Of a stretch of 64,000 bases of DNA, positions 4,332-47,092 are shown piece after piece; position 1 is the stretch's first letter, and the number at the start of each line of letters is the position of its first letter. Made by a program: the position numbers and the translations under genes. Under the pieces are notes generated by a model. That model made no database searches, had not been told where the DNA came from, and saw nothing but the letters and a program-made list of their open reading frames with translations. Origin of the DNA: Bacilli bacterium (GTDB lineage: Bacteria > Bacillota_I > Bacilli_A > RF39 > UBA660); assembly GCA_017435485.1 (NCBI GenBank), contig JAFSEY010000013.1, forward strand, positions 600 to 64,599, read 5' to 3'.

Positions 4332-4407
4332 GTATCTTTTCTCCTTTAAAACATTTTTTATAAATTATTTTTAATTCTTAACAAAACTTATTTAATATCT
4401 AATCAAA

Positions 4408-5007: not shown

Positions 5008-5084
5008 ATTAATTCATCTCTTTTCAATTAAATATATTACTTGCGATATTTTTCCTTTTCTTACCATCTACGTTTTGATTGCTT

Positions 5085-5993: not shown

Positions 5994-6027
5994 AATAAAC
6001 CTCCCTGTTAATCTAGTACTTTAGTCT

Positions 6028-13866: not shown

Positions 13867-13879
13867 TTAATACTCACTC

Positions 13880-15067: not shown

Positions 15068-15068
15068 A

Positions 15069-17584: not shown

Positions 17585-17662
17585 TTAAAACACCCCTTTT
17601 GATGTGTTTTATATACTATCATAAAACAGCTTCAAAGTAAACAAAAAGCATCTATTAGACGC

Positions 17663-25768: not shown

Positions 25769-26644
25769 TTATTTTAAACCTCGAGGATTTGAATCATCAT
25801 AATAGCCAAATTTTAGGTTTGAAGTATTAAATATTTCTTGAAAGCATTTTTTTAATACCTTTTTACTTTCTATAGTTTCTATTGGCTTTATTAACTCAAA
25901 ATCATTTAACACTATTGAATCAGAAAAACAATCATCAATTTTCATAGATTCTATTTTTATGTTAGTGTTAAGTAAATTTTCTATATCTATACAAGTTTTA
26001 ATATACTTGCTAAAAAAATCCAATATCTTTCGAAATATTTGTTCTTGCCAATGTAAAGGGATCAACTCACTTTTATCTATACAAAAAAAGATATATACCC
26101 AAGCATCATATGTGCAAATTTGATTTATGATATTTTCAAAGCCATACAGTATGTTAAACATTGGGTTATTTTTTTCCCTACTTTTTGTATTTAAATTATT
26201 AAACAAAACTGGAAGCTTACCCACTTCTTTAGAAAATTCATCTTTTTCTAGATCTAATTGCAAGATTATTTTATTTAATCTCTTATGGATAAGATCATGA
26301 AACATAGCACATATGCCCAATTGAATCACGGTAAAAGCACAAGCTATACTATCTTTTAAACTGTAAATATAAATTTTTGTATTATCTTGTTCAATGTAAT
26401 CTCCGCATGAATTCGGTGTCTTTAAATTTGATTTATCGCTAATTTCAAAATAGCATACTTCTCTTCTTTGACGACCTAAATATGTAGCCATTTCATTTTC
26501 AATACTTTGTAAAACTTTAATTCTTTGTTCAGCATTTAATTTTTCCCAATTTTTATCTACTAAATAAAATAAATTTTCTTCTGAAATCAAATTAATCACC
26601 TTCAAAGTAGTTTTTATTTTAGCTATTAAATCATATTTTGTCAA
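25769..26644 (-). CDS. hypothetical cytoplasmic protein downstream of the bacteriocin peptides (start uncertain)
   Basis: The 291-aa ORF as given starts at a TTG directly abutting a hairpin and has no RBS. An in-frame TTG 54 nt downstream is preceded by GAAGGTGA and is the more likely start (about 26590). Confidence 0.45.
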   Translation of the reverse strand: MTKYDLIAKIKTTLKVINLISEENLFYLVDKNWEKLNAEQRIKVLQSIENEMATYLGRQRREVCYFEISDKSNLKTPNSCGDYIEQDNTKIYIYSLKDSIACAFTVIQLGICAMFHDLIHKRLNKIILQLDLEKDEFSKEVGKLPVLFNNLNTKSREKNNPMFNILYGFENIINQICTYDAWVYIFFCIDKSELIPLHWQEQIFRKILDFFSKYIKTCIDIENLLNTNIKIESMKIDDCFSDSIVLNDFELIKPIETIESKKVLKKCFQEIFNTSNLKFGYYDDSNPRGLK

Positions 26645-26990: not shown

Positions 26991-29042
26991 CTACTTATGA
27001 AAATTTTTAGGCATGTTTATACAATAATCAAAATATTTTCTTAAATTTTTATGACTTACATAAATAATCGTTTTATTTCGATAATATCTTTTTATATTTT
27101 TAATAATTTCTATTTCAGTTTTAATATCAACTTCACTTAAAGCTTCATCAATAATTATAAAGTTGCCGTTTTTAAGCAAATTTCTTGCTAAAATTATTTG
27201 TTGTTTTTCTCCTCCTGAAAGATTAGTAAGACTATCGGCTATATTACTTAAGAAGCGTAAAGGTTTTTTGGCAATTATTTTATCTATCAAACATATTTGG
27301 CAAACTCTTTTAAATTGTTTTTTTGATATATTGCGATGACAAATAATATTTTGATAGATAGTATCAGAATAAAGACTTTCTTTTTGATTAATAATCGTAA
27401 AATTATCTTTAATCCATTTAGCACTAATATCTTTATAATTTAATTTTCCCAACAAAATATCCCCTTGATAATTATTGATTTCTTTATATAAGCACTTTAT
27501 TAAAGTACTTTTACCACAACCAGATAAGCCATTTAAAAAATAACTTTTTCCAGTTCTTAATTTATAACTAAAGTTATTAATTATATTTGTGGTATCGTCA
27601 TAGGAAACTTGTAAATTTTTAATTTGAATATCATTATACTCAGGAACAAAAATCCTATTATCTTTTTCTTTGGGTAAATTTCTAAATTCACTAACTTTAT
27701 ATATTGAGTTTTTAAGATAATAGAATTGAGGAATAATACTTATGATGCTTTCATAAGATGTCGAAAACCAATTAATTAGAGAATTAAAGGTAATTAAATT
27801 TATTAAATCAAATTTATTTAATAATATTTGATATAGCGCATAGGTATTTAGTAATAAAAAGCCTAAGTCTTTAACAATTAATTTTAAAACTTGCTCTATA
27901 TTTATTATCCGTCTTAAATCATCATCAGTTCTAATTACTTCTGACAATTTATAATCAAGCCATAAATTTATTTGGGGCTTAATCTGTAAATTATTGATAC
28001 TAGTAGCCATTTCGATGTTTTCAATCAAACAAGTATTGTAATCTGTTTCGGTATCCATCCAACATCTAATTTTGGTGTTTACTTTATTAGCAAAAAGTAA
28101 AGAAATTATCGTGTACAATATATATGTAATTAAAATAATTAAAAATAATTTCAAATTGATTAAGGCTAACATACCAATACTAGCAATTACTAATAAAACA
28201 TCAAGTAATAAAGTAATAAACATCTCTGAAAAAAACTCTTTTATTTCTTTTAGTTCATTAACTCTAGTTATTATTTCTCCAGATGTTTTAGTTTGTAATA
28301 TATTTAAAGGAAGAAAAAAGATATGACTTACAAAATCTGATATTAAACTTTTATGAACGGTTTTATTTAACTTATTATATAATCCGTTATGCCAAAATGT
28401 AATTAAAGTTTTTAAGAGTGTAATTAATACGAATGATATAAATAAAATAAACATTAAATTTGTTTTATTGTTATGGATTAGAAAGTCACCAATTTCTAAA
28501 TAAAAGCCACTTAATAAACTAAATATCATTATTAAGAGACTTAATAAAATTATTAGAAGGTACTTTTGTTTTTCTTTGAACAAAATTTCGAAAAAGAAGT
28601 GTACTACGTTAGTTTGCATTGGATAATTTATTATTTCGTGTTTTGGTTGGAAATCTATTATTATATTGTCCCATTGTTTAAGGAATTCGGCCTGAGTTAA
28701 AACTAATTTTCCCTTAGCAGGATCCATTATAGTTAATCTATCATTTTTTATTTTATAGATTACAACAAAATGGTTAAGGCCATTTTCTAAGATTACATGA
28801 GCTATAGCTGGTAATCTTGTTATATTTTTAAAATTTTGACATTTCATCCCGTTAGCTTCAAAGCCATAAGATTTGGCTGCTTTGATTAAATGATATGCAC
28901 TAGTCCCCCGATCATCGGCATAAGTATCTAATCTTATTTTTTCTAACGGAACATTTCCATTATAATGACGTATTATACTAAGTAAACAACAAGGTCCACA
29001 ATCTTTTAAATCTCTTTGATAAACAATATCCTTTCTTTTCAT
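26991..29042 (-). CDS. bacteriocin/peptide ABC exporter with N-terminal C39 peptidase domain (ComA/LagD type)
   Basis: N-terminal QRDLKDCGPCCLLSII...HFVVIYKI (C39 Cys/His), six TM helices, Walker A GLSGCGKST, signature LSGGEKQQ, Walker B IIIDEALS. Confidence 0.9.
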   Translation of the reverse strand: MKRKDIVYQRDLKDCGPCCLLSIIRHYNGNVPLEKIRLDTYADDRGTSAYHLIKAAKSYGFEANGMKCQNFKNITRLPAIAHVILENGLNHFVVIYKIKNDRLTIMDPAKGKLVLTQAEFLKQWDNIIIDFQPKHEIINYPMQTNVVHFFFEILFKEKQKYLLIILLSLLIMIFSLLSGFYLEIGDFLIHNNKTNLMFILFISFVLITLLKTLITFWHNGLYNKLNKTVHKSLISDFVSHIFFLPLNILQTKTSGEIITRVNELKEIKEFFSEMFITLLLDVLLVIASIGMLALINLKLFLIILITYILYTIISLLFANKVNTKIRCWMDTETDYNTCLIENIEMATSINNLQIKPQINLWLDYKLSEVIRTDDDLRRIINIEQVLKLIVKDLGFLLLNTYALYQILLNKFDLINLITFNSLINWFSTSYESIISIIPQFYYLKNSIYKVSEFRNLPKEKDNRIFVPEYNDIQIKNLQVSYDDTTNIINNFSYKLRTGKSYFLNGLSGCGKSTLIKCLYKEINNYQGDILLGKLNYKDISAKWIKDNFTIINQKESLYSDTIYQNIICHRNISKKQFKRVCQICLIDKIIAKKPLRFLSNIADSLTNLSGGEKQQIILARNLLKNGNFIIIDEALSEVDIKTEIEIIKNIKRYYRNKTIIYVSHKNLRKYFDYCINMPKNFHK

Positions 29043-29974: not shown

Positions 29975-31261
29975 GTGTTGATTTATATGTTTCGTGAATT
30001 TGATTTTGAAAATCGTCCCATAGTTGAAATAGTTGACGAGATATTAGCTGACGCCAATAAATATGGTGCTTCAGATATTCATTTTGATCCAACACCAGAT
30101 AGTTTAAACGTTAGAATAAGGGTTGATGGAGAATTACATGATTATACTAAAGTTCCCGACGCTGTAAAAAAGAATCTTCTTACAAGAGTTAAAATTATTT
30201 CTGGTATGAATATTACCGAAACAAGATTACCTCAAGATGGTGCCATTAAAGGTAGTATAGATACATATTCAGTAGATATGCGTGTTTCTTCTCTACCCAT
30301 AGTTGACGGAGAAAAAATTGTTATAAGACTTTTAGATTATAGCAAAAGTTTAGAGGGTTTAGAAAGTCTTCAGTTTTCTGAAATTAATTTAAATAAGATA
30401 ATCAAAGCAATTAACAGTCCAAATGGAATTATACTAGTAACTGGAGCCACTGGTAGTGGTAAATCAACCACTGTTTACTCAATCTTACAAAGATTAAATG
30501 ATGTAAAAACAAATATCATTACAGTTGAAGACCCAGTAGAAATGAAGATATCCGGAATTAATCAAGTTCAGGTTATGAGCGAAATTGGCTTGACATTTTC
30601 TTCGGCTTTACGTAGTATTTTACGTCAAGACCCTGATACAATTATGATTGGTGAAATTCGTGATGATGAAACTGCGAGAATAGCCGTTCGTGCTTCCATT
30701 ACTGGACATTTAGTTCTATCAACAATCCATACTAATAATGCGCTTACTACAATTGAAAGATTACTTGATATGGAAGTAGAAAGATATTTGTTAGGCTCAG
30801 CTTTAAATACCATTATTGCTCAAAGATTAGCAAAAAGGCTATGTCCAAAATGCCGCGAAAAAACTTTTGCTAGCGTTTATGAAAAAAACATTTTTAAAAA
30901 AGTTTTAAAACAAGACATAGAATATGTTTATATACCACATGGTTGTAAAGAATGTTTCAATGGATATAAAGGTCGAATTGCTGTTCATGAAGTTTTAACT
31001 ATAGATCAGACTATTCGAGATGCAATTGTAAATAGCGTCAAAAAAGATGAATTGAGAAAGTTAGTCTATGAAGAAGGAAAAACTATTACAATGTTACAAG
31101 ATGGTTTAGAAAAAGTTGTTAATGGTTATACATCTTTTGAAGAAATAATCAATTTAATTGATATTACGGAAGATATAGATGAAAATGATGAAGATTTAAA
31201 AAGAGCTTTATTAGGAAGTTCGAATATAGAAAAAATGGATGAGAATATAGAAATTTTATAA
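29975..31261 (+). CDS. type IV pilus / competence pseudopilus assembly ATPase (GspE/PilB/ComGA family)
   Basis: Walker A VTGATGSGKSTT, Asp/His boxes, C-terminal tetracysteine (CPKC...CKEC). At 428 aa it is a short ComGA-like form. Confidence 0.9.
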   Translation: MLIYMFREFDFENRPIVEIVDEILADANKYGASDIHFDPTPDSLNVRIRVDGELHDYTKVPDAVKKNLLTRVKIISGMNITETRLPQDGAIKGSIDTYSVDMRVSSLPIVDGEKIVIRLLDYSKSLEGLESLQFSEINLNKIIKAINSPNGIILVTGATGSGKSTTVYSILQRLNDVKTNIITVEDPVEMKISGINQVQVMSEIGLTFSSALRSILRQDPDTIMIGEIRDDETARIAVRASITGHLVLSTIHTNNALTTIERLLDMEVERYLLGSALNTIIAQRLAKRLCPKCREKTFASVYEKNIFKKVLKQDIEYVYIPHGCKECFNGYKGRIAVHEVLTIDQTIRDAIVNSVKKDELRKLVYEEGKTITMLQDGLEKVVNGYTSFEEIINLIDITEDIDENDEDLKRALLGSSNIEKMDENIEIL

Positions 31262-31280: not shown

Positions 31281-31305
31281 AAAGAGAAAAATTTAATTTT
31301 CTCCT
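31281..31305. terminator. bidirectional hairpin (gagaaaa-atttaa-ttttctc) between the convergent ATPase and spoIVB genes
   Basis: 7-bp stem. A U-run follows on the minus strand (TTTTTATAAAAAAAA), while the plus-strand tail is weak. Confidence 0.45.
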
Positions 31306-32261
31306 TCTACTAACATTGTTGTAATAAATATTCCATATCCACTTAATACATCATCTACTATCACATGAGTAACTGCTCCGATTATTTTATCATTTTGTAT
31401 TATTGGACTGCCACTCATTCCTTGAACAACGCCCCCAGTTTTTTCAATTAATCGCTCATCGGTTATCGAAAAAATTAAATTTTTTATATATGCATCTTCA
31501 TTTATACTATTAATACTAATAGAAAATTTCTCTACCTTTTGATTTTCTAAAACTGTATAAATAAAGGCTTCTCCAACTTCCACTTCGTCAATTTCAGCAA
31601 CTTCTAAAGTCTCTTTTTGAGGTAACAATGCACTATAATTTCCATATATACCATACTTCGTATTTTTTTTAATATCTCCATAAATATTATTTAAATTAAA
31701 TTCGGCATTTTTACTACCCGGATTACCATTTATACTTTTATTTATAGAGGTTATTCTATTTTCGAATATTGTTCCAGTTTTAATTTCAACAATAGAATTT
31801 GTTGATTTTTCCATAATTTCATGTCCTAAAGCCCCATATATTTTAGTGTTTGGATCTATATATGTTAATGTTCCTATACCAGTTATGCTATCTTTAACAT
31901 ATAGTCCAGTCTTATATATGTTATTGTCATAAATCAAATCAATAGCAGTTTCTGATGTTTTTCCCTTTCTTGTATAAGTAACAATTATTTTTTTTTTAGA
32001 AACATTATTTTCGATTTTAGTGGTAAGTTGTTCCAAACTAGTTACGTCTTCTCCGTTTATTTTAGTTATATAATCCCCAACTCTTAGCTCACCCTTGTTA
32101 TATTTTCCATTTATTTTATAAAATCCAATTATCATTATTCCTTCACTTTTTATATCAATTCCCAAAGTTTCTCCTCCTGGTATTATATAATCCGAATACG
32201 CTAAAGTCATACCGGGAAAGATCATCATGCTGCATATAATTGCTATAATATATTTTTTCAT
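31293..32261 (-). CDS. spoIVB: SpoIVB peptidase (S55) with PDZ domain
   Basis: Signal peptide/TM, PDZ block (GDYITKINGEDV), catalytic serine GGVVQGMSGSPII. Confidence 0.8.
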   Translation of the reverse strand: MKKYIIAIICSMMIFPGMTLAYSDYIIPGGETLGIDIKSEGIMIIGFYKINGKYNKGELRVGDYITKINGEDVTSLEQLTTKIENNVSKKKIIVTYTRKGKTSETAIDLIYDNNIYKTGLYVKDSITGIGTLTYIDPNTKIYGALGHEIMEKSTNSIVEIKTGTIFENRITSINKSINGNPGSKNAEFNLNNIYGDIKKNTKYGIYGNYSALLPQKETLEVAEIDEVEVGEAFIYTVLENQKVEKFSISINSINEDAYIKNLIFSITDERLIEKTGGVVQGMSGSPIIQNDKIIGAVTHVIVDDVLSGYGIFITTMLVEGEN

Positions 32262-34157: not shown

Positions 34158-34290
34158 TTTTCTCACCTCTATAACTTTTAAAATTATAACATTATATTTT
34201 AATATATACAATTAGAAAAGCATAGATTAATTAATTTTATTGACCATATTATTAACAATAAAAAAAGCCAAGTTTTTGGTTTTTTTTATT

Positions 34291-34722
34291 TTATCTTATG
34301 TTCCTTAAATATGTTGTAAGCTCTCTTTTTTTATCATTTGCCTCTTGGCGTTTATTAGAATATGCTGCTTGAGCTCTATCTCGAGAAGAACGGGCCATAT
34401 TTCTTTCGCTTACTGAAGAATCGGGATTGCTCATTACACTTCTATAATAACCGTTAGCCATTTCATATTCATTTTTTAACTTTTCAACATTGTAATATAT
34501 AGCATTAAATTCATCATAACATTTTTTAGCACTTTCTAAATTAGTAATACAATATCCTACAGCTGTAATAGTTTTTTGGGACATATAACTTCTACCATCT
34601 TTTAAAGATGCGAATTCATCACTAAATTTTATTTTAGCGTTTCCACTCCAAATGCTTTCTTGCCCATAGCCAAGGTCAAAATTATTAAGCGTTGTTTTTA
34701 TCTTTTCAACTAAACTTTTCAT
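34291..34722 (-). CDS. WXG-motif helical protein (143 aa), last gene of the WXG/M23 module
   Basis: N-terminal helical hairpin with the ESIW-S-G motif placed as in WXG100/ESAT-6-like proteins. Its start overlaps the stop of the M23 gene. Confidence 0.35.
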   Translation of the reverse strand: MKSLVEKIKTTLNNFDLGYGQESIWSGNAKIKFSDEFASLKDGRSYMSQKTITAVGYCITNLESAKKCYDEFNAIYYNVEKLKNEYEMANGYYRSVMSNPDSSVSERNMARSSRDRAQAAYSNKRQEANDKKRELTTYLRNIR

Positions 34723-36071
34723 TATTGAGCCTCCTTAAACCATTCTGGATATTGATAATTAATATTATTTTCGGCCATATATTTATCATAATCTTCTGGG
34801 TTTCGATAGAAGTGACCAGATAATTCACTCGAATAGGCTTGTCTTTCAAACATAGCATCTTTTCCATATAATTTTTGCATACTTTCTTCCGTCACATAAG
34901 TATTTCCATCTTCTCTTACTTCAGTTTCTATTTCATCAATTGTATAGGTTGAACCATTAGAAACCTTAACAAAATTTTTGTTATACCTTTCATTAGGTTG
35001 TAAATGCATCTCAGTTTCGACATGACAATGATAACCATCAGAATTACCACTTTTTCCAACTTCTCCCATTACAGTATCGGTTGTAACAACTTGACCTACC
35101 TTTAAATCACTTACATCATCCATATGTCCATAACTAGTTAACATATACTCTGTTTCTCCAGTTTCAGGATTTACATGTTCTGACAAGATTGTAACATAAT
35201 AGCCCAATCCCTCATATTTATTTGTCCCTTTTTCTACAACAATTCCTGAGGCAATAGGTGTAATTGATTCTCCATGATCTGTAGATCCACCATCCAAAGA
35301 ATTCCAATCGCTTCCCCAATGTTTATCTCCATCCGAATAATATCCATTAGCATGATCTGTAATTACCATCCTTGGATTAGAAAACGGTCTTTCTAAATCA
35401 TCATACCCACCATACGTTGTTACAAATAAATCCGAAGGCACATTTTTGGGCAATTTATTATAATCAACTAAAGGTATTGCTTCTAAAGCTGCTACGCTTG
35501 TCAAGGCTGTTGGGTCAATTGTAGTATATGCTATTTTTGATGTTGTTTCTTGATTATTTCCGACGTACATTATTTCATCACCAGCACTAAGAGCAATTGC
35601 TTGTTGTGAAGTAATGGTTTGTCCATCTTTTGTTTTGAACACTTTATTCCATTCTGATCCTTCATGACCTTTGCTAATAGCTAGATTCCACAAAGTATCA
35701 CCTTTTTGAATTGTTATAGTTTCGCTACTAGGTGTTGGCGTTGCTGTTGAAGAGGCTTCTTCAATTGTTACTGGTTGACCACTTTCAAAAGCTGTAATAT
35801 TATCGCTATGATATTGCGCTTTATCTATTAATTTATTTAAAGCTTCTTGTAATTTAGTTATCTTATCTTTAGTCCTAGTCACTTTATCAGGAAAAGCAAC
35901 CGATGAACCATCTGCCAATGTGGCTAAACTTGCATATCCTGTACTATCTAACTTAGCCTTTAACTCTTCTAAATCTATTTTAGAAACATTAATAAGAATA
36001 TTTAATTTATCGCTTAAACCGTCGGTATCAATTTTATACTCTTCAGCATTTGTTTTTACATTCCAACTCAT
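34722..36071 (-). CDS. LysM-domain M23 (LytM-type) peptidoglycan endopeptidase
   Basis: LysM (TIQKGDTLWNLAISKG...), M23 motifs HWGSD, GYYVTILSEH, GKSGNSDGYHCHVE. No N-terminal signal peptide is evident. Confidence 0.8.
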   Translation of the reverse strand: MSWNVKTNAEEYKIDTDGLSDKLNILINVSKIDLEELKAKLDSTGYASLATLADGSSVAFPDKVTRTKDKITKLQEALNKLIDKAQYHSDNITAFESGQPVTIEEASSTATPTPSSETITIQKGDTLWNLAISKGHEGSEWNKVFKTKDGQTITSQQAIALSAGDEIMYVGNNQETTSKIAYTTIDPTALTSVAALEAIPLVDYNKLPKNVPSDLFVTTYGGYDDLERPFSNPRMVITDHANGYYSDGDKHWGSDWNSLDGGSTDHGESITPIASGIVVEKGTNKYEGLGYYVTILSEHVNPETGETEYMLTSYGHMDDVSDLKVGQVVTTDTVMGEVGKSGNSDGYHCHVETEMHLQPNERYNKNFVKVSNGSTYTIDEIETEVREDGNTYVTEESMQKLYGKDAMFERQAYSSELSGHFYRNPEDYDKYMAENNINYQYPEWFKEAQ

Positions 36072-36090
36072 GTTTTGTTACCTCCTTTAA

Positions 36091-37293
36091 TTATCCAGTC
36101 ATTATTTCTAGAGCTTCTTCATATGACATATCATATGGATTATCCGTGTACGTTCCTTCTGTAAACAAAATGTATTCTGCCGCCATTCTTTTTACACTAG
36201 CTTCTTCATAGTCACCTTTATTTCTATGGGAATACATTTCTGCTCGTAGGGCTTCATTTCCCCCTTCGGCGTAAGCAGCCATTGCATTTTCTGCTTGTTT
36301 TTTTCCTGTACCTGTTCGATAAACGTAACTAGTCATAGCATTTACTTGATCTTCATTCAAAGAAACATTTTGTTCATTTGCAGCATTTATCACTCTATCC
36401 TTTTTGGCGGCAACTTCCTGATGATATAGATTATCTACTGCACTTTGTTTTACATAAATTTCACCATTTTGTTCTACATATGCATTGTCACTTAAATATC
36501 TATTTCCATTATTATCTATAACTTGGACTCCGCTACTTGCCGCATATGTGCCGTTATCCTTATATGCTTTATAATATTTTTCACCATTTATTGTTGTTGT
36601 TGGTTTAGTATCTTCCAATTCTTTTAGCCAACTATCTAATTTTGGGGTCATTCCATCTTCAACTACAGTTTTATTTGAAGTTGCTTTTTTAGTAGTAGAT
36701 GAAGTTGTATTTTCTTCTACTTTTTCAGTTGCTCCTGCTATACCAGCGGTTGCAGTGGTAGCTGCGACTGTTGTTTCAGGTGCTGCTGTTGTTGGTTCTT
36801 CAGCTTGCATTAAAGATTGAGTTGCAGGTTCTGTTGTAGGTTGAGTGGTATGCTCAGTAGGAGTTTCAGACGCCTTTTGATTATTAGATTCCGTGTTTTG
36901 GGAAGCTTCAGAATTACTATTTTCTCCAGATATTGATCTTTCTATAGCTTCGTCAGTACTCAAATAGCCTTTACTAGCATCATTCAGCAAATTAGAAATT
37001 GTGGTTGCATAAGTTCTAACATTATTACTATATGTATTATAACCATTGCTTGTTGAATTTTCCGAGAAAGATGCTCCACGCTCAAAAAATGCCCTGGCAT
37101 TTTCACAATATTTTTCGGCTAACGGACCTTGCCATATTTCTCCTTCTTCAAGAGATTTAAAACAATCTTCTATCATTTTCATAAAAAATGAAATCATAGA
37201 TAAACTATCGTTAATTTGTTTTGCTTTGTCCACTAAAGCTTCAGGAGCAACTGTAAATTCGCCTACTAGATTATTATTAGTATTATTCGCCAT
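36091..37293 (-). CDS. WXG/LXG-like N-terminal domain fused via a Thr/Pro/Ala-rich linker to an uncharacterised C-terminal domain (polymorphic-effector-like)
   Basis: N-terminal helical hairpin with EIWQGPLAEKY (WxG), a low-complexity TEPATQ/TTAAP linker, and a C-terminal ~180-aa domain of unknown family. Confidence 0.4.
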   Translation of the reverse strand: MANNTNNNLVGEFTVAPEALVDKAKQINDSLSMISFFMKMIEDCFKSLEEGEIWQGPLAEKYCENARAFFERGASFSENSTSNGYNTYSNNVRTYATTISNLLNDASKGYLSTDEAIERSISGENSNSEASQNTESNNQKASETPTEHTTQPTTEPATQSLMQAEEPTTAAPETTVAATTATAGIAGATEKVEENTTSSTTKKATSNKTVVEDGMTPKLDSWLKELEDTKPTTTINGEKYYKAYKDNGTYAASSGVQVIDNNGNRYLSDNAYVEQNGEIYVKQSAVDNLYHQEVAAKKDRVINAANEQNVSLNEDQVNAMTSYVYRTGTGKKQAENAMAAYAEGGNEALRAEMYSHRNKGDYEEASVKRMAAEYILFTEGTYTDNPYDMSYEEALEIMTG

Positions 37294-37585
37294 TTGTACT
37301 TCTCGCCACCAATCTATCTATTTGTTGATATTTTCGAATAGTAGTCTTCAAATCTTTATTTAATTGATTTATTGCTACTAAAAAATTATTTAAATAAGTT
37401 GGGAATTCTTTAACAACAGAATTGTTGTAAACTTTAGAAGCGGTACCGGACCATTCTGATTTATCAAATTTTGCAATATCCTTAAAATTAGTTATTTCTT
37501 CTTTTAAGCAATCAATATTTTTTTGAATAATATCAATCTTTGATTCTAATTCTTCATACTTTACTATAACTTTCATAAAAGCCAC
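37283..37585 (-). CDS. WXG100 (ESAT-6-like) family small protein
   Basis: Exactly 100 aa, helix-turn-helix, with central SEWSGTAS (W-x-G). Overlaps the start of the next gene by 11 nt. Confidence 0.5.
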   Translation of the reverse strand: MAFMKVIVKYEELESKIDIIQKNIDCLKEEITNFKDIAKFDKSEWSGTASKVYNNSVVKEFPTYLNNFLVAINQLNKDLKTTIRKYQQIDRLVARSTNGE

Positions 37586-37672
37586 CTCTATAATAATTAT
37601 TTTAACACATTATCTATATATATATCAAAAAAAAATACAAATTTTTTGCTTTTTGTATATTTTTTTGTAAAT

Positions 37673-40216
37673 TTATTTGTCTAGTTGTTTTAATTCATAT
37701 AATAAATTAATAGCTTCTATTGGGGTAATATTTAATGGATCAATACTTTTTAACTTTTCTTTTACTAGATCTTCCTTAGCACTAACTTTTTCTTCTTCAA
37801 AATCTATTGCTAATTGAACTTTTTCGCTTTTCTTATTTTTAGCACTATTTTCATATCCTACTAATATTCCACTTGCTTTATCGATTATTTTATCAGGCAT
37901 TTTAGCTAGTCTTGCCACATGGATACCATAACTTTTATCTACCGCACCATTTTTGATTTTATGTAAGAATGTTATTTTATTTCCTTCTTCTAGAGCTGCC
38001 ACATGAACATTCTTAATATTGGGATATTTTCTTTCTAAAGATGTTATTTCATGATAATGAGTTGAGAATAAAGTTTTACATTTAATATTTTCACTTATAT
38101 ATTCTAAAATAGCTTGAGCAAGACTCATACCATCATATGTAGCCGTTCCTCTTCCCAACTCATCAAACAAGATTAAACTATCTTTAGTCGCGTTACAAAT
38201 AGCATTTCTAGCTTCATTCATCTCAACCATAAAAGTAGATTCTCCACTTACTAAATCATCACTCGCCCCAATTCTTGTAAATATTTTATCAATAATTGGA
38301 ATATTGGCTTTTTTAGCTGGCACAAAACACCCTAATTGCGCCATGATAACGATTATAGCCAGTTGTCTCATATATGTTGATTTACCACTCATATTAGGTC
38401 CCGTAATTAAAAGCGTATTTATATTACTTGGCATTATGCAATCATTGGCAACATATTCTTCTTTACTTACTTTTTCAATTACTGGATGACGTCCATCAAT
38501 AATTTCTAACTTGTTTTCATTATTAAGTAATGGCCTTACTAATCCATATTCTTCAGCATCAACTGCTAAACTAGCCAAACAATCAATTTCACTTAACATT
38601 AATGCTGTTTGTTTTAGTGTTAAAATATCTTTCTTAACAGTTTCTTTTATCTCAATAAATAATTTATATTCTAATTCAATTATTTTTTCTTCTGCATTTA
38701 AAATTAATGCTTCTTTTTCTTTTAATAACGGCGAAATGTATCTTTCACAATTAGCCAAAGTTTGTCTTCTTTCCCAATGATATTCTTCTTTTATTTCGTT
38801 AACTTGACCTTTACTTACTTCAATATAATAGCCAAATACTCTATTGTACCCAACCTTAAGATTTTTAATATTTGTTTGTTCTTTAATTTCTTTTTCAAAA
38901 GAAGCAATAAAGTCTTTTCCTCCACTACGAATAGCTTTTAATTCATCTAACTCATCGCTATAACCATCTTTAATTAAATAGCCTTCTTTAATACCTACCG
39001 GAGGATTTTCATAAATAGCTTTTTCTAATAATTCACATAAATCATCAAAAGTATCAATCTCATAATCAAATTTTAAATCTTTAATAATATTTTTAATTAA
39101 AGGTAATACTTTTAAACTATTTTTAAGTTGTAATAAATCTCTAGCTCCAATATTACCACAAGTTATTTTTCCGCATAGTCTTTCAATATCGTAAACTTCC
39201 GCCAAATTATTTCTTAGTTCTTCTTTTAAAATAAATTCATTATTTAAAACTTCAATTTTATCATATCGTTCATTTATTTTATCTAAACTCTTTAGAGGCT
39301 TTAACATCCAATCTTTTAACATTCTACTACCCATAGCCGTTTTTGTTTTATCTAATAACCATATTAAAGAATAAGTTCTTTCTTTTAAGCGAAGTGTTTC
39401 AACTAGCTCTAGATTCCTAATTGTATGAACATCCATTTGTAAGTAATCTTCTTTATCAATAATATTTACCTTATCTAAATGAGACATATCCTTTAATTCT
39501 TTAACTACTAAATAATAAAGTAAATGTTTAACGCCCATTTTACATCTTACATCATTAACAGATTCAATTAAATAAGTATATTTATCTTCTAATAATTCAC
39601 TAGTAAATGATACCTCTATACCATAATTATTTTTTAGAATATTAATAAGTTCACTATCTAAATTATCTTTTAGAATAACTTCCTTAACCTTTAATGATAA
39701 TAGTTCACTGACTAATTTTTCTTTATCGTGATTTATGGTTAAAGAATTAATAGTTCCTGTTGAAATATCTGCATAAGTTAATATGTATATATAATTAAAA
39801 TCTAATACTCCACATATATAACTATTATCATGTTCTTTTAACATTTCATAATCAGCTATAGTTCCTTTAGAGATAACTTCCACAACGCCTCGTTTAACAA
39901 CACCCTTAGCTTCTTTAGCATCTTCTAACTGCTCACAAATAGCTACTTTGTATCCTTTATTTACTAATTTTTCAATATAAGGTTTTACTGAATGAAATGG
40001 AACTCCACACATTGGTATACGTTCATCTAATCCAGCATTTTTCCCTGTTAAAGTCAGTTCTAATTCTCTAGAGGCAATAATCCCATCTTCAAAAAATAAT
40101 TCATAAAAATCGCCTAAGCGAAAAAATAAAAGTTCTTCTTCATATGAATCTTTTATTTCCATATATTGCCGCATCATCGGACTAATTTTATTAAGATCTA
40201 CTTCATTTCTTTTCAT
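37673..40216 (-). CDS. mutS: DNA mismatch repair protein MutS
   Basis: Mismatch-binding N-terminus (MMRQYMEIK..GDFYELF), Walker A GPNMSGKST, C-terminal HTH region. The likely true start is MKRNEV. Confidence 0.95.
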   Translation of the reverse strand: MKRNEVDLNKISPMMRQYMEIKDSYEEELLFFRLGDFYELFFEDGIIASRELELTLTGKNAGLDERIPMCGVPFHSVKPYIEKLVNKGYKVAICEQLEDAKEAKGVVKRGVVEVISKGTIADYEMLKEHDNSYICGVLDFNYIYILTYADISTGTINSLTINHDKEKLVSELLSLKVKEVILKDNLDSELINILKNNYGIEVSFTSELLEDKYTYLIESVNDVRCKMGVKHLLYYLVVKELKDMSHLDKVNIIDKEDYLQMDVHTIRNLELVETLRLKERTYSLIWLLDKTKTAMGSRMLKDWMLKPLKSLDKINERYDKIEVLNNEFILKEELRNNLAEVYDIERLCGKITCGNIGARDLLQLKNSLKVLPLIKNIIKDLKFDYEIDTFDDLCELLEKAIYENPPVGIKEGYLIKDGYSDELDELKAIRSGGKDFIASFEKEIKEQTNIKNLKVGYNRVFGYYIEVSKGQVNEIKEEYHWERRQTLANCERYISPLLKEKEALILNAEEKIIELEYKLFIEIKETVKKDILTLKQTALMLSEIDCLASLAVDAEEYGLVRPLLNNENKLEIIDGRHPVIEKVSKEEYVANDCIMPSNINTLLITGPNMSGKSTYMRQLAIIVIMAQLGCFVPAKKANIPIIDKIFTRIGASDDLVSGESTFMVEMNEARNAICNATKDSLILFDELGRGTATYDGMSLAQAILEYISENIKCKTLFSTHYHEITSLERKYPNIKNVHVAALEEGNKITFLHKIKNGAVDKSYGIHVARLAKMPDKIIDKASGILVGYENSAKNKKSEKVQLAIDFEEEKVSAKEDLVKEKLKSIDPLNITPIEAINLLYELKQLDK

Positions 40217-40299
40217 ATTTACCACAAAAAATATTATATAAAAAAACAATAAAAAAAGCTAGATTAAACTAGCTTAACTTAAAATGATATTAAATTGTT

Positions 40300-42439: not shown

Positions 42440-43330
42440 ATGAAAAAGAAACAAGATATTTTAATTATTACAATTATTATTTTAATAATAGCCTATATTT
42501 TAATATATAATCAAAAAATTACCTTAATTATTAAAGATTCTACAATACTATGGTTTAATAAAGTATTTCCATCCCTTTTTCCAATGTTTATTTTAAATGA
42601 TTTATTATTAAGCTATCATATTGATTATTATATATGTAAAATATTTAAAAAAAATGGTTTAAAATATTATGTTTTTATAATGAGTTTATTATCTGGTAGT
42701 CCATCTAGCGCCTATATTATAAAAAGATTATATGATGATAAAATAATTGATAAATATAATGCTAATAAGCTATTATCATTTACTTACTTTTCTAGTCCAT
42801 TATTTTTAATTACAATGCTATCATTTTTATTTACTAATAAAACTACAATTATAAAAATAATTTTAATTCATTATTTATCTAATTTTATTATTAGTTTCTT
42901 TTATAAAATTGAAACTAATGATAAATTAAGTTATAAGGTCACAAAGGATTTTGGAAGTAATTTTGCAAACGCAATTAATAAAGCAATAAACACACTATTA
43001 ATGATTTTAGGGATCCTTACTTTTTATATAATCATTTCCTACATTTTTATAGATATATTTAATCTAAATTCTATCACAAGTAGTATGATTAAAGGTATAT
43101 TAGAAGTTACACAAGGATTAACCTTTCTAAATGAATTATTTATTAATGAAAAGTTAAAAATCATCCTAGCAACGCTATATATAAATTTCGGAGGTTTATC
43201 TATTCATAGCCAAATAAAAAGTATCATTTCTGATACTTCTATTAATTATAAATATTTTCTTAAAGGAAGAATATTTCAAACCTTGATTAGTTTAATTTTA
43301 ATATTAAAAATTACTGGAATAATTTTGTAA
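42440..43330 (+). CDS. polytopic membrane protein (family unassigned; possibly YlbJ-like)
   Basis: 296-aa product with about eight TM helices. Adjacent to a ylbL-like gene as ylbJ is in Bacillus, but much shorter than YlbJ. Confidence 0.35.
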   Translation: MKKKQDILIITIIILIIAYILIYNQKITLIIKDSTILWFNKVFPSLFPMFILNDLLLSYHIDYYICKIFKKNGLKYYVFIMSLLSGSPSSAYIIKRLYDDKIIDKYNANKLLSFTYFSSPLFLITMLSFLFTNKTTIIKIILIHYLSNFIISFFYKIETNDKLSYKVTKDFGSNFANAINKAINTLLMILGILTFYIIISYIFIDIFNLNSITSSMIKGILEVTQGLTFLNELFINEKLKIILATLYINFGGLSIHSQIKSIISDTSINYKYFLKGRIFQTLISLILILKITGIIL

Positions 43331-44014
43331 TACGCCATTAACAAAATTGCTTGGTTGACCTCCTGGACAATTTTTTACATCTGCTAGGTGTAAAGAATTA
43401 TTAAGATTGCATAACCGTTCATGATTATTGTTGTTAACAATAAATTTATCAGTTACAAAATAAAAGGGAACATTAATTGAATCTATAATCTTATTAGAAT
43501 CATCAAATAAATATATATTTATTTGACAATGTAAACTAGGTTTATTCCAAGAACAATTTTCGGAAATTTTAACTGATTTAACCTCTTCTCCAAAATTCCA
43601 AACATTTATATTTTTCCATTCTTTTTCTACACCAGTAGCATGTGGCAATTTTTCTCGTACCATTATCATTCTACCTTTATTACTAACCCCTATAGCTTTT
43701 TCATACATAATTCCATCCAGCTTCACATCTAAACGAATATATTGACTACTTTTTTTGTCATCTTCATCCAACCATATATCGTTCCAAAGTCTAATTTCAG
43801 AAATATCTTCTTCTCTTCCAAATTCAAAATCATCCATTAACACATTTTGAATTTTAGTTTCTATATCAACAATCTTCATAATGTTATCAGTGTATGCATC
43901 ATTATCATTTTTTTTGCGTTGTAAATTAGTCATTAAACCATACATAAATACTAATGCTACACTAAGCATAGCAATACTTACTATTAATTCAATTAACGTC
44001 ATTCCTTTTTTATT
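43304..44014 (-). CDS. prepilin-type (type IV pilin-like) protein
   Basis: KKGMTLIELIVSIAML class III signal (G|MTLIE) followed by a hydrophobic helix. The start is probably MNKKG, internal to the track ORF. Confidence 0.55.
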   Translation of the reverse strand, partial: NKKGMTLIELIVSIAMLSVALVFMYGLMTNLQRKKNDNDAYTDNIMKIVDIETKIQNVLMDDFEFGREEDISEIRLWNDIWLDEDDKKSSQYIRLDVKLDGIMYEKAIGVSNKGRMIMVREKLPHATGVEKEWKNINVWNFGEEVKSVKISENCSWNKPSLHCQINIYLFDDSNKIIDSINVPFYFVTDKFIVNNNNHERLCNLNNSLHLADVKNCPGGQPSNFVNGVLQNYSSNF

Positions 44015-44036
44015 CATTAGCAAGCTCCAATCCCTA

Positions 44037-46070
44037 TCATAAACAAATATCCGACTCATGATTTCCATATGCATCATATGTACGATAACCTAATTTATAC
44101 GGATCCTTTTCAGTACCTTTTCCACCACAATAAATTACATTTGTATTTAAATTAATGACTGGTCTAATATAAGCCCCAATTTGATTTTGATAGGTTATTT
44201 CATCTATCTGATTACCATATTTATCATATATGTAAGTTTTTAATCCATCTTTTGGTTTATCATTTAGCTGTACTATCCGCCCATTATTACCATCAGTTTG
44301 CCTTAAAGCAAAGTAATAAGCCCCTGTTCTCTTTTGCGAATCAGTATAATCAGTATAAGATAACGTCATTGTCCAAAACATTTCTTTAGAGTTGGCATGG
44401 TCAAATAAGTAACTTTGCGTTCCAATTTCAGAAGTATTATAATTTACCCCTGCAAAAACAGCTTCATCAACTGACAACAATCCAATCGGATAAGTTAAAT
44501 CACCATTTCCTAAATATTCTAAACTAGAAATATAACTATATACAGGCTGACCAGGCTGATTAAGTTTTGTCAAAGTATAATATTGATAATAATCTCTAGC
44601 ATTACTATTTTGATAAGCATAAGGTATCCTATCATTTTGATATGCGATTAAATTTTTTTCACTAGATTTTGTTGACGGTGAAATCTTATACGTTGTATAA
44701 CTACTTTTTGCCACAGGATTTCCATATAATCGTACAATTCCACCATTAGAACCATCTACTCCAGTTGTAAAACCCGCGTTTAAATATTCGGTATTATTTG
44801 CCACATTATATCTATTTAAATTTAATACTTCATTATTTTCTTTAGTAGCTATATTACCCGAATCAGGACAAATCAAACTAGGAACTTTCTTATCTACGAT
44901 TCTTTCCCAACCAGAATAATAATACCGCTCAGTTTTTTTATATATCTCCCCCCCCTTTTCAAGTAATTTTTCTAAAAAGTTATCTGCTTCTGCTTCATTA
45001 TCCTCAGTACAATTAATACTTTTACCGGCATCATCTGTACATTTAGTTCTATTTTTATCTCCGCAAAAAATTGTCTCGGCACTTAACATGCTTGAATTTA
45101 ATGAAGCTTTCTCATACCATTTGTCTATGTAACTTTTTATTTCACTAGAATCTTGATTATCATATTTACTATCATATCTGTATAATAACGCTTCTTCATT
45201 ACTCATATATCCAATATTATGAAGTAGATGAGCCCCTAAAACATTACCTGCATTTTCACAGCTTTTACCATATTCATCTGATAATAAATTATCTAAATAT
45301 TCCGCTTGGTTTTCTGCAATTTCTAACCCAAAACACGTTGTTGCTTTGCACAAGTTTTTAAGTAATTTTTCTTCACAATTTTCAAGGCAGGCATTAACAG
45401 ATTCCCCAAGAGTTGTAGCTCGCTCATTCACAATATTTAGCACAGCTTGTCTTACATCACATTCAGTGCTGTTATATCTACTATAATTATATTTTGTCAA
45501 ATCATTTGATGCAGTAATATCAATATAATCATTTCCATCTTTAAGCTTTGATTCATTTGAAGCTGCAGAAGAATTATATTCGCCTTGATATATTAATCTA
45601 ACAGTATTGTTACCATTGATTCTAACAATTCTCCATATATAATTTCCAAATTTAACATAATTACTATTTACTTTACCTCTATAATAATAACTATAATTAG
45701 GACTAGTATTTGATGTTCTATACATTCGCGAATAATCATCTAGAGTAACAAAAAATCCACTTTCTTCTGTATCGTCAGTTAATTGTTTTACTGAAAGATT
45801 ATTCTCATCATTTTTTAATTTAACTGTATCAGGATTGCCATTTGCTTTGACATAACCTTTTTTCATGGCTTCAGTTTTCTTTATACACTCAGCCAATGAA
45901 TCACCAGATTCACATACAGCAATCTCATCTTTAGGAACCCAAGTTGGCACTTTATCTTTTAGATATCTTTTATTAGTGTATGAAGCTAACATAGCTAACA
46001 TTATTACTAAAAAAACTATAAAGAACGAATAAATAATTGATATTGATATAAATCCATTTTTCTTTTTCAT
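44037..46070 (-). CDS. large (677-aa) pilin-like/minor-pilin-associated protein with an N-terminal hydrophobic anchor
   Basis: N-terminal KKNGFISISIIYSFFIVFLVIMLAMLA (pilin-like but lacking Glu+5), followed by a long Asn/Tyr/Ser-rich extracellular region. Sits inside the pilin operon. Confidence 0.45.
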   Translation of the reverse strand: MKKKNGFISISIIYSFFIVFLVIMLAMLASYTNKRYLKDKVPTWVPKDEIAVCESGDSLAECIKKTEAMKKGYVKANGNPDTVKLKNDENNLSVKQLTDDTEESGFFVTLDDYSRMYRTSNTSPNYSYYYRGKVNSNYVKFGNYIWRIVRINGNNTVRLIYQGEYNSSAASNESKLKDGNDYIDITASNDLTKYNYSRYNSTECDVRQAVLNIVNERATTLGESVNACLENCEEKLLKNLCKATTCFGLEIAENQAEYLDNLLSDEYGKSCENAGNVLGAHLLHNIGYMSNEEALLYRYDSKYDNQDSSEIKSYIDKWYEKASLNSSMLSAETIFCGDKNRTKCTDDAGKSINCTEDNEAEADNFLEKLLEKGGEIYKKTERYYYSGWERIVDKKVPSLICPDSGNIATKENNEVLNLNRYNVANNTEYLNAGFTTGVDGSNGGIVRLYGNPVAKSSYTTYKISPSTKSSEKNLIAYQNDRIPYAYQNSNARDYYQYYTLTKLNQPGQPVYSYISSLEYLGNGDLTYPIGLLSVDEAVFAGVNYNTSEIGTQSYLFDHANSKEMFWTMTLSYTDYTDSQKRTGAYYFALRQTDGNNGRIVQLNDKPKDGLKTYIYDKYGNQIDEITYQNQIGAYIRPVINLNTNVIYCGGKGTEKDPYKLGYRTYDAYGNHESDICL

Positions 46071-46071
46071 A

Positions 46072-46671
46072 TTAATAACCTCCTTCTAAATTAGGGTAAT
46101 ATATAAAGGCTTGATAATCTTGTTTATTTTCTTCATCATAAAACTCTCCAATAATACGATAAGTCTTATATTTTTGATTATATTCCTTACATGTACCTAA
46201 AGATTTAATATATTGCATAAATTCATTAGTTAATAATGACTCTTCCCAATCTAGAAATAAATTTTCATTATCAACATTTTTACATCTTAGAATTACTAGT
46301 GTTTTAAGATTGTATGTGTTCGCTAAACTCTTAAATTTAGACTTTTTTGGTTCACTATTTATTTTAGCATCATTATAATCTTTTGGTCCAACCGATTCTT
46401 TTTCAATATACGACGCTAAAATCTTAAAATTGTCATTTTCATCATTAAATATTCTATCGGCTGACAAATCAATATTATTATCAATCATCCATTCTTTTAT
46501 ATAAAATAATGAATATCGATAACCTTTTTTTTCATAATCTGTAACTCTTTTTTCGTTACCCAATAAGTTTGTAAAAGTACTATAAAGCATTAATAAAACT
46601 GTTGCTAAAACTGTTAAAGTTACGATCGTTTCTATAAACATAAAACCTTTTTTTTTCTTCATATTACTCAC
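46072..46671 (-). CDS. prepilin-type minor pilin
   Basis: KKKGFMFIETIVTLTVLATVLL class III signal with Glu+5. Confidence 0.6.
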   Translation of the reverse strand: MSNMKKKKGFMFIETIVTLTVLATVLLMLYSTFTNLLGNEKRVTDYEKKGYRYSLFYIKEWMIDNNIDLSADRIFNDENDNFKILASYIEKESVGPKDYNDAKINSEPKKSKFKSLANTYNLKTLVILRCKNVDNENLFLDWEESLLTNEFMQYIKSLGTCKEYNQKYKTYRIIGEFYDEENKQDYQAFIYYPNLEGGY

Positions 46672-47092
46672 ATATTATTCCTTTGTTTTCATTATACTCA
46701 AAAGTTGACATGTATTTTCCTTTATCATATTTTACAACCACAAAATTTATAGGAGAATCATAAACATAATTGTTAGTATTACATGACCAACCACTATCGC
46801 AACTAGTATTATCAACTGGATTTACTAAATCTTCTTCTTCGATATAACCATTATTAATCAACATAGATAAAGTAACCCACCTTGTATTATCTGGATCGTT
46901 ATAAAAACCATTTGTATCTATAACATATTCTACTGCTAAATTTTCAATTTGTTTTTTTAAATTATTACATGCAGTTACCTTTTGTTCTTTACTAATTTTA
47001 GCATAGCTAGTTGCTGCAATAGCTACAGCTATTGATAATACAACTAAAACAGCTAGTAACTCAACCAATGTAAAACCCTTTTTCATAAGCAT
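46664..47092 (-). CDS. type IV (pseudo)pilin, major-pilin-like (ComGC/PilA-like)
   Basis: MKKGFTLVELLAVLVVLSIAVAIA is the canonical G|FTLVE prepilin motif. 142 aa, with C-terminal cysteines. Confidence 0.7.
   Translation of the reverse strand: MLMKKGFTLVELLAVLVVLSIAVAIAATSYAKISKEQKVTACNNLKKQIENLAVEYVIDTNGFYNDPDNTRWVTLSMLINNGYIEEEDLVNPVDNTSCDSGWSCNTNNYVYDSPINFVVVKYDKGKYMSTFEYNENKGIICE

Follow-up and report, generated by a model that had tools for sequence, protein, structure and literature searches.

A mutS-nusB operon linking WXG100-like proteins to peptidoglycan hydrolases in a gut lineage of Bacilli: candidate type VII secretion substrates

The 64,000-nucleotide stretch analysed here (the window; positions 600 to 64,599 of contig JAFSEY010000013.1 from the Bacilli bacterium assembly GCA_017435485.1) carries a group of four genes that appears to combine small helical proteins resembling substrates of type VII secretion systems (T7SS) with enzymes that cut peptidoglycan. 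An earlier reading of the window, made from its letters alone (the sequence-only reading), had placed a four-gene module between mutS and nusB, and four co-directional minus-strand open reading frames (ORFs) are indeed bracketed there by mutS (37673-40249) and nusB (33759-34157/34211), the labels of the neighbouring genes being those of Pfam. Identical genes are found on a 200-kb ruminant gut metagenome contig, of which the window is the reverse complement of positions 135,873-199,872. The four genes are referred to as P1 to P4:

37283-37576, minus strand: P1, 97 amino acids (aa), WXG100-like 'a' partner
36091-37293, minus strand: P2, 400 aa
34722-36071, minus strand: P3, 449 aa
34291-34722, minus strand: P4, 143 aa

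All public assembly gene calls agree on the ATG at 37576 as the start of P1. The sequence-only reading had given this protein exactly 100 residues, but the GTG in question lies within the ribosome-binding site (AGAGGTG) of that ATG, so that P1 has 97 residues. The genes are closely packed: P1 and P2 overlap by 11 nt (37283-37293), as had been read, P3 and P4 by 1 nt, and a spacer of 19 nt lies between P2 and P3, the latter having a strong AAAGGAGG site. Three candidate transcription signals surround the module:

37625..37672, minus strand: likely terminator separating mutS from the module, an AT-rich hairpin with a U-run just after the mutS stop codon
37599..37628, minus strand: sigma-70-like promoter candidate in the mutS-P1 spacer, TTGATA, 18-nt spacer, TAAAAT, with an extended TG
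34250..34292, minus strand: likely terminator closing the operon ahead of nusB, an AT-rich hairpin with a U-run after P4

The RNA fold of the first hairpin has an energy of -9.4 kcal/mol (z = -3.56 against 200 shuffles) and that of the second an energy of -9.3 kcal/mol (z = -3.52 against shuffles). The hairpin at 37625..37672 was not called by a consensus terminator scan, because its stem is too poor in G-C pairs. The promoter candidate is the top-scoring promoter-like site of the region scan (10/12 matches plus the TG), but the total of such sites in the region equals the shuffle expectation and the site is suggestive only. With hairpins on both sides, a promoter-like site in front and overlapping genes within, the four genes look like a single transcription unit composed of two translationally coupled pairs, P1-P2 and P3-P4. 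No signal peptide or membrane segment is present in any of P1 to P4, the highest Kyte-Doolittle value over 19 residues being 1.21; the claim that P3 lacks a signal peptide stands accordingly, as no 19-residue window of it is sufficiently hydrophobic.

P2 and P3 are multidomain proteins. Their segments are given below, where L009 and L021 denote two related loci that are described further on.

36931..37293, minus strand: P2 residues 1-121, 'b' partner domain with three predicted helices, W54-Q-G56 and Y110-L-S-T-D114
36676..36930, minus strand: P2 residues 122-206, Thr/Pro/Ala/Ser-rich linker, predicted disordered
36091..36675, minus strand: P2 residues 207-400, GH24 (T4/P22-type) lysozyme domain, from profile and fold matches
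35772..36071, minus strand: P3 residues 1-100, N-terminal domain without WxG, inferred helical, conserved with L009 and L021
35559..35723, minus strand: P3 residues 117-171, LysM-like peptidoglycan-binding segment, from weak matches
34998..35357, minus strand: P3 residues 239-358, M23 metallo-endopeptidase domain with intact HxxxD (HWGSD) and HxH (HCH) zinc motifs
34722..34997, minus strand: P3 residues 359-449, C-terminal extension (~90 aa) without a Pfam or NCBIfam match

The C-terminal domain of P2, which the sequence-only reading had left unassigned, is by profile comparison and predicted fold a GH24 lysozyme. In an exhaustive HMMER search of 1.8 billion representative proteins, 20 relatives of P2 were recovered, three of them through the N-terminal domain and the rest through the lysozyme domain, and all 12 aligned members of the resulting GH24 family match PF00959 (best E = 5.8e-14). 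The P2 domain alone scores 21.1 bits against PF00959 (cut-off 22.3), and the profile of the GH24-cargo family matches the PDB muramidase 6et6 at E = 1.4e-10. In the AF2 model of residues 207-400, the predicted local distance difference test (pLDDT) values of the block are 70-93, and the top Foldseek matches are all GH24 muramidases, with a target-normalised TM-score of 0.72. The family contains an invariant Glu in a consensus E-G-G motif (E22 of alignment A5; KELED in P2), followed by ...YKDNGT..., although the register relative to solved structures is uncertain there. M23 and GH24 domains stand in one chain in six of the seven large proteins examined among the closest GH24 relatives, suggesting a working pair of activities that recurs.

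In these closest GH24-cargo relatives (P0009-P0023) the domain forms the C-terminal end of proteins as long as 1,310 aa; several have an N-terminal membrane segment, and two of the large proteins contain GDSL-lipase or C39-like domains. The large M23-GH24 proteins were also considered as conjugation components; tblastn to plasmids and phages matched generic M23 only, and no such claim is made.

The M23 domain of P3 is well above the curated threshold of PF01551 (E = 5.8e-11, 42.9 bits, cut-off 28.7) and matches PDB 9gy1 at E = 0.0022. Thus, of the LysM-M23 architecture that had been read from the sequence, the M23 part is confirmed by profile and zinc motifs. The LysM part is weakly supported: the segment scores 14.6 bits against PF01476 (cut-off 20.9, E = 0.032, over 13 positions only) and E = 2.9e-4 against the NCBIfam LysM model. 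Homologous enzymes of a more distant relative, L023, contain strong LysM matches (E = 2.6e-15 and 8.1e-16, 56-58 bits). The N-terminal domain of P3 has no match to a Pfam, NCBIfam or PDB family and is continuous with the longer N-terminal region of the L023 M23 enzyme.

P4 has the 143 residues and the W-S-G (W25-S-G27) that had been reported for it. W25, G27, N28, A29, K32 and F33 are kept in L009 and L021, and no counterpart of P4 is present in L023. The single-sequence AF2 model contains a hairpin of helices 49-98 and 104-142 (pLDDT 82-98), while residues 1-48 are below 50. The label 'WXG-like' given to this protein rests on the motif, since the WSG lies outside the predicted hairpin loop, and beyond a match to TIGR03930 at E = 0.056 no Pfam or NCBIfam family was matched. 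To judge from sequence and model, P4 is not a canonical WXG100 protein; that it serves as a partner of P3 is a guess.

P1 comes closer to the WXG100 proteins. It carries W42-S-G44 and, near the C-terminus, Y83-Q-Q-I-D87; WxG combined with YxxxD/E has been described as the bipartite export signal of T7 substrates (PMC10765036), and Lap1 partners depend on a related FxxxD motif (PMC9600955). Against PF06013 P1 scores 25.7 bits (cut-off 27.3, E = 1.4e-5) over model positions 4-85 of 86, and against TIGR03930 it scores 29.6 bits (cut-off 44.85, E = 6.1e-7). Homologues of P1 at 96% and 77% identity carry a precomputed PF06013 label, and one close homologue is named 'WXG100 family type VII secretion target' by NCBI. 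Word-indexed homologue searches with P2, P1 and the N-domain alignment returned near-identical relatives only. In the alignment of this small-protein family (family a; five sequences, down to 22% identity), W42, Y83 and D87 are invariant. The family a profile, enlarged with L023 sequences, matches the LXG-domain structure 8gmh_B at 5e-4 and EsxB at ~0.05 in the PDB, a weak result because keratin coiled coils score similarly. With about 100 residues and a W-x-G in mid-protein, P1 may be regarded as a borderline WXG100 protein.

The N-terminal domain of P2 defines a second small-protein family (family b). The 400 residues of P2 and its EIWQGPLAEKY segment are as had been read. In the AF2 model of the N-terminal domain, helices span residues 17-49, 57-76 and 81-121, with the WQG in the loop between helices 1 and 2. 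W54, G56, T113 and D114 are invariant in seven family b homologues, and the five members from outside L023 read YxxTD and keep Y110. L023 b1, a free-standing homologue, weakly matches WXG100 (E = 0.0018, 19.0 bits). The best PDB matches to the family b profile are without exception EsxB, ESAT-6 or EsxA (E = 0.04-0.2), over the full length and with the WxG aligned. Furthermore, an hhalign alignment of family a with family b extends over 94 columns (E = 5e-4) and places both WxG and Y..D in the same columns; it is significant only once the L023 sequences are added. P2 has no match to curated WXG100 models, and no match to LXG (PF04740) at E <= 1 was obtained for P2, P3 or a paralogue, P0003. The linker that follows the b domain has no predicted secondary structure (pLDDT 22-29), in keeping with the Thr/Pro/Ala-rich linker described before, and differs between strains in length and sequence. 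Each of these remote matches of the small proteins is weak, and all of them point to WXG100-type proteins.

As the WxG motif is short, its presence in this module could be a coincidence, with the four genes being unrelated neighbours. The motif can indeed arise by chance, since an unrelated 289-aa protein of the window (1145-2014, minus strand) contains an extended pattern of the W-S-G-x-x-A-x-x-x-[FY] type at residue 183; four ORFs of the window carry the extended W-x-G-x(1-2)-A-x(2-3)-[FY] pattern, of which three are module genes. However, given the composition of the 63 ORFs in the window, 0.31 WxG motifs would be expected in the 1,092 aa of the module, which contain three. Homologues sharing 22-45% identity all retain the motifs, the Trp being unchanged down to 22%, and the genes, which are translationally coupled, stay together across relatives and recur there in other fusions. 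A coincidence, which the sequence-only reading had itself named among the findings that would overturn it, is therefore extremely unlikely.

The module is rarely represented in sequence collections: in a pattern scan of 185,579 species-representative genomes, the P2 N-domain family was found only in a goat-cecum metagenome-assembled genome, 'Bacilli bacterium RGIG1752'. It had been described as an inserted island, but at least four related lineages carry it in the same position on the mutS side and it is fixed in the clade, with mutS, nusB, xseAB and spoIVB as flanks in all relatives. All four genes recur in the same place in the sister strain L009 (GCA_017398945.1). Its P1, P3 and P4 and the N-domain of its P2 share 94-96% identity with those of the window, whereas the C-terminus of P2 is unrelated. 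At the DNA level the two strains match by blastn at 91% over 40268-36786, have no match over 36786-36093, and match at 85% from 36093 onward. The difference between them is a clean replacement of the cargo cassette:

36093..36786, minus strand: cargo cassette replaced in L009; DNA homology is lost near P2 codon 169 and picks up again at the P2 stop codon

Other relatives carry further combinations. P0007 joins a P2-type N-domain to an SLT lytic transglycosylase cargo (PF01464, E = 4.7e-7), and P0008 joins one to a cargo domain of the L009 type. No assignment in Pfam, NCBIfam, PHROGs or PDB was obtained for the cargo domains of L009/P0008 and L021; a PDB match of the alternative cargo to designed WD-repeat proteins was rejected as an artefact of summed repeats, and a conjecture that made the L009 cargo a 3D/DPBB-type transglycosylase was set aside.

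In L021 the cargo has moved to the other small-protein family. The gene order there is a fusion of a P1 homologue with cargo (358 aa), a P3 homologue, a P4 homologue, a free P2 N-domain (132 aa) and nusB, and the fusion reaches E = 0.0012 against LXG PF04740 (19.1 bits, cut-off 26.5). This shift of the cargo is as expected if families a and b work as a pair. Between the window and L021 nusB is 91% identical, while the module proteins are only 32-44% identical. The more distant metagenome relative L023, found by a metagenome scan with P0007, has after mutS the order a1 (90 aa), b1 (105 aa), a 618-aa helical-LysM-SLT protein, a 558-aa helical-LysM-M23 protein, a2 (89 aa) and b2 (123 aa). P1 matches L023 a1 (E = 2e-8), the P2 N-domain family matches both b1 and b2, and P3 matches the 558-aa enzyme (5e-15); a1 scores 22.8 bits against WXG100 (E = 1e-4), and the matches of a1 and b1 cover most of the model. 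From this comparison the conserved unit consists of a WXG100-like a/b pair, a glycan-strand-cleaving enzyme and a LysM-M23 endopeptidase. The fusion in L021 and the free partners flanking the hydrolases in L023 thus tie the small proteins functionally to the hydrolases.

A second locus is present on the same 200-kb contig but outside the window (L005 9073-10951; contig ~87.9-89.7 kb), after rpoC. Three small helical proteins (93, 93 and 107 aa), which match WXG100 weakly and have degenerate W-K-S / W-D-Q motifs, are encoded there upstream of an effector, the paralogue P0003 (316 aa), in which a different helical N-domain is joined to the same GH24 cargo (66% identical to that of P2). No called gene lies between P0003 and miaA, where only ORFs of 52 and 54 aa are found. 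In its gene content this locus matches the partners-plus-effector layout of type VIIb secretion system (T7SSb) toxins (PMC9600955).

Enzymes of the GH24, SLT and M23 families are typical of phage and transfer-apparatus lysins, and the module could accordingly be the domesticated remnant of a lysis or wall-penetration cassette of a prophage or conjugative element, that is, of an endolysin together with an M23 tail or transfer lysin. P3 matches phage endolysin and metallo-endopeptidase PHROGs, the SLT cargo of P0007 matches phage baseplate-hub PHROGs (E = 1e-24 to 1e-34), and P1 weakly matches one PHROG of unknown function. Such an origin is nevertheless very improbable: tblastn with P2 found nothing among 50,697 phage and 72,556 plasmid records, scans of metagenome contigs and of viral contigs with the N-terminal region of P3 returned no match, no phage structural, integrase, holin or transfer genes surround the module, and its GC content is not sharply unlike that of the neighbouring genes.

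Taken together, the module is probably a self-contained operon of type VIIb-style substrates, the cargo of which is a matched pair of peptidoglycan hydrolases. We infer from these observations how the partners may pair, by which route they may leave the cell and what they may act upon. P1 (a) and the N-domain of P2 (b) would pair into an EsxA/EsxB-like bundle displaying a composite W-x-G plus YxxxD export signal, and this bundle would carry the GH24 lysozyme, tethered by the flexible linker. P3, with its LysM and M23 domains, would be carried by its own N-domain, with the coupled hairpin protein P4 as partner. An EssC-type ATPase encoded elsewhere in the genome would export both complexes without a Sec signal, and outside the cell one enzyme would cut the glycan strands and the other the peptide cross-links. 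That enzymes acting outside the membrane have neither Sec signal nor membrane segment counts for T7-type export, and to judge from the proteins' sequences such export of P2 and P3 is rather more plausible than not. Variable cargo and upstream genes for small helical partners, as in LXG toxins, are likewise apparent in these sequences. The favoured use of the enzymes is against the walls of neighbouring bacteria, either as lytic effectors or in giving other toxins a way through, with own-wall remodelling by the producer as the less likely use. The role in conflict is favoured because cargo is swapped between strains and because the module diverges far faster than its flanking genes.

Several observations weigh against this interpretation. 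P1 remains below the curated cut-off of PF06013, and P2, P3 and P4 miss every curated Pfam and NCBIfam threshold for WXG100 and LXG. The AF2 confidence of the P2 N-domain is low (pLDDT ~45), earlier, shallow profile-profile comparisons among P1, the N-domains of P2 and P3, and P4 were not significant, W25-S-G27 of P4 lies in the poorly predicted N-terminal part, outside the hairpin of residues 49-142, and Foldseek found only generic hairpins for P4 (all E > 0.1), which is uninformative. The operon contains nothing resembling an immunity gene with a signal peptide or lipobox, and a fixed site among housekeeping genes together with muralytic cargo wherever cargo can be assigned is unusual for polymorphic toxins. 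Finally, no EssC, EsaA, EssA, EssB or YukD was found in ~95 kb of the 200-kb contig (the window, L005 and a further stretch, L018).

The 64-kb window itself contains no ORF of EssC size and no FtsK/SpoIIIE match, in agreement with the sequence-only reading, and with no T7SS core gene in the ~95 kb sampled the exporter is a putative one. Just past the window end (L018 4351-8440; contig ~130.3-134.4 kb) lies an orphan ATPase of the FtsK/HerA/VirB4 superfamily with three downstream genes. The ATPase (4351-6207, 618 aa, one P-loop domain) matches DUF87, TrwB_AAD_bind and CedD (E = 9e-9), as well as EccCb at E = 2.5e-5 over 65 residues that comprise the P-loop only, and its downstream neighbours are a Cys-rich 232-aa protein and proteins of 290 and 175 aa without a family match. 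This ATPase, ~30 kb away, was rejected as the exporter: it has a single ATPase domain, no membrane segment by eye and similarity at the level of the P-loop, and is not EssC-like in size or architecture. Should the lineage be without a canonical T7SS, the WXG-like pairs would mark an undescribed Sec-independent route by which folded peptidoglycan hydrolases pass the membrane of a Gram-positive cell. In a weaker version a T7SS is present and the glycan-cutting and peptide-cutting enzymes are its first recognised 'wall-drilling' cargo, with which it would breach the wall of the producer or of prey, an answer to how T7SSb substrates get through thick walls. We give this reading only a slight chance. 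The sequence-only reading had likewise allowed for the module being something not described, which is possible but is not the leading reading.

A different explanation is that the proteins are not T7SS substrates at all, the helical parts instead regulating or scaffolding hydrolases that reach the wall through release by lysis, through control of the FtsEX type or through an undescribed exporter. The absence of T7SS core genes from the sampled 95 kb agrees with this explanation, as does the fact that all family assignments of the helical parts are below curated thresholds. The CwlC-type lysins of spore formers have no signal and are released on mother-cell or programmed lysis, and sporulation genes do lie nearby (SpoIVB at 31293-32261 and YqfD at 23584-24744). 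The FtsEX-controlled, coiled-coil hydrolases PcsB, CwlO and EnvC have a helical N-terminus followed by a hydrolase domain, a layout that likewise counts for this explanation. Enzymes of the PcsB, CwlO and EnvC type carry Sec signals or membrane anchors, however, whereas P1-P4 have neither. Release by lysis would leave the partner-cargo fusions and the swapping of cassettes unexplained, and no holin-like membrane protein is found in or beside the operon. In addition, W-x-G and YxxxD are the most conserved positions of the small proteins, and their best remote matches are EsxB, ESAT-6 and LXG. We therefore regard a role outside type VII secretion as distinctly unlikely.

The proteins may also be exported by a T7SS and yet act as autolysins on the producer's own wall, allowing passage of the secretion machine or another envelope structure, in the manner of EssH, or aiding cell separation. 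This alternative is kept alive by the fixed position beside mutS and nusB in every relative seen, by cargo that, wherever assignable, is always directed at peptidoglycan (GH24, SLT or M23), and by the lack of an immunity gene in the operon; directly downstream, the gap between P4 and nusB contains only a hairpin and no cognate immunity gene, and P4 itself, free of signal peptide and membrane segment, has the look of a helical partner. The M23-GH24 fusions of the large relatives could likewise represent a recurrent two-cut tool. It is also relevant that the T7SSb of S. aureus needs a dedicated hydrolase, wall crossing in other Firmicutes being stated as open (PMC13059805, PMC13492133). Housekeeping enzymes of wall remodelling are not expected, however, to swap catalytic domains between strains, nor to retain only 32-44% identity where nusB retains 91%, and EssH itself is exported by Sec and is not a T7 substrate. 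Own-wall remodelling is for these reasons an unlikely alternative, albeit one of some weight, and action of T7-exported hydrolases on neighbouring bacteria remains the favoured role.

Overall, the module may best be described as T7-type substrates with peptidoglycan-hydrolase cargo and unusual partner-cargo fusions, from a barely sampled gut lineage. What the sequence-only reading had observed is largely right and its interpretation is partly supported: the coupling of WXG100-type substrates to signal-less wall hydrolases is borne out by the invariant motifs, the matches to WXG100, EsxB and LXG, the cassette swap, the relocation of cargo and the second locus, while the sub-threshold scores of P2, P3 and P4 and the non-canonical nature of P4 tell against it.

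Other genes of the window are recorded here as observations in their own right. Peptidoglycan synthesis is represented by a class A penicillin-binding protein, a Mur ligase and an alanine racemase. SpoIVB is 76% identical between the window (31293-32261) and L009 (8000-8968), where mutS, nusB and xseA are 91-94% identical, and is thus unusually fast-evolving for a sporulation signalling protease. A cluster at 12326-18886 (minus strand), between the glycyl-tRNA synthetase gene and a YgjP/SprT-like gene, consists of five tandem genes for apparently soluble proteins of ~395-424 aa, paralogous-looking by eye, and an 88-aa gene, with no Pfam match. A pilin/pseudopilin-like cluster at 43304-47092 (minus strand) contains two weak N_methyl matches and proteins of 677 and 199 aa without a Pfam match, and across the module, at a distance of ~12 kb, a T2SSE-type ATPase is encoded at 29975-31261 (plus strand). 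A link of the pilin-like cluster or of this ATPase to the module was considered and set aside, since nothing beyond proximity supports it. At 26991-29042 lies an ABC exporter with a C39 peptidase domain (bacteriocin-type), adjoining a 291-aa protein without a family match (25769-26644).

The closest known system is formed by the LXG toxins of T7SSb with their Lap1/Lap2 partners (DUF3130/DUF3958), for example TelC-LapC1-LapC2 of S. intermedius (PMC9600955, PMC10765036). Both consist of a helical targeting module, small WXG100-like partners and a polymorphic C-terminal enzyme, without a Sec signal and with [Y/F]xxxD on a partner; in both the C-terminal cargo is swapped between strains, and the loci can be remote from the genes of the machine. 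In contrast to LXG toxins, the N-domains of the module do not match the Pfam LXG domain of ~200 aa, and the targeting domain of P2, of only ~120 aa, itself resembles a WXG100 partner fused to cargo. Moreover, the assignable cargo is muralytic (GH24, SLT or M23) instead of a nuclease, NADase, membrane or lipid II toxin, there is no adjacent immunity gene, and cargo migrates between partner proteins; the present system is known from genes alone.

With EsxA/EsxB (ESAT-6/CFP-10) the module shares adjacent overlapping genes, the size of P1 and the free b proteins (~90-105 aa), the W-x-G in mid-protein, a YxxxD near the C-terminus of one partner and the remote matches to EsxB and ESAT-6 structures. 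It differs in the sub-threshold scores, in the fusion of one partner to a 190-aa enzyme through an 85-aa linker, and in that its heterodimer is a putative one. Wall-cutting weapons against other bacteria exist in other forms, namely the Tae amidases and Tge muramidases of type VI secretion and the Sec-secreted lysostaphin, zoocin A and enterolysin A, which vary between strains and are accompanied by periplasmic or wall-modifying immunity. The module differs from these effectors and bacteriolysins in its export route, and no immunity gene was seen in it.

EssH, the CHAP hydrolase associated with the T7SSb of S. aureus, likewise ties a cell-wall hydrolase to type VII secretion (PMC13059805). Unlike the proteins of the module, EssH has a Sec signal peptide and a CHAP domain, is encoded in the ess locus and is explicitly not a T7 substrate (PMC13059805). 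It is the only dedicated T7SS-linked hydrolase described and is restricted to S. aureus (PMC13059805), and how T7SSb substrates pass the thick wall of producer or target is stated as unknown in reviews (including PMC10765036 and PMC13059805). The T7SSb cargo of the literature comprises nucleases, NADases, membrane toxins, lipases and a lipid II phosphatase; no T7SS cargo of the GH24, SLT or M23 type was found in the openly accessible literature, including a 2012 survey of polymorphic toxins and reviews of 2022, 2023 and 2026. If the interpretation favoured here is true, it would add a cell-wall-degrading class to T7 cargo and provide a concrete candidate for the missing wall-breaching factor of T7SSb.

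The 'reverse' T7SSb substrates TslA/TslM show that a targeting domain can be rearranged relative to its cargo and that lipases, as non-classical enzymes, are among the exported proteins (PMC13560087). In these substrates the LXG-like domain is C-terminal, whereas the targeting part of the module's proteins is N-terminal and the cargo moves between two partners across genomes. Depending on the genome, cargo is attached to partner a, to partner b or to a longer helical domain, and these variants would offer a natural series for dissecting how the T7 signal is assembled.

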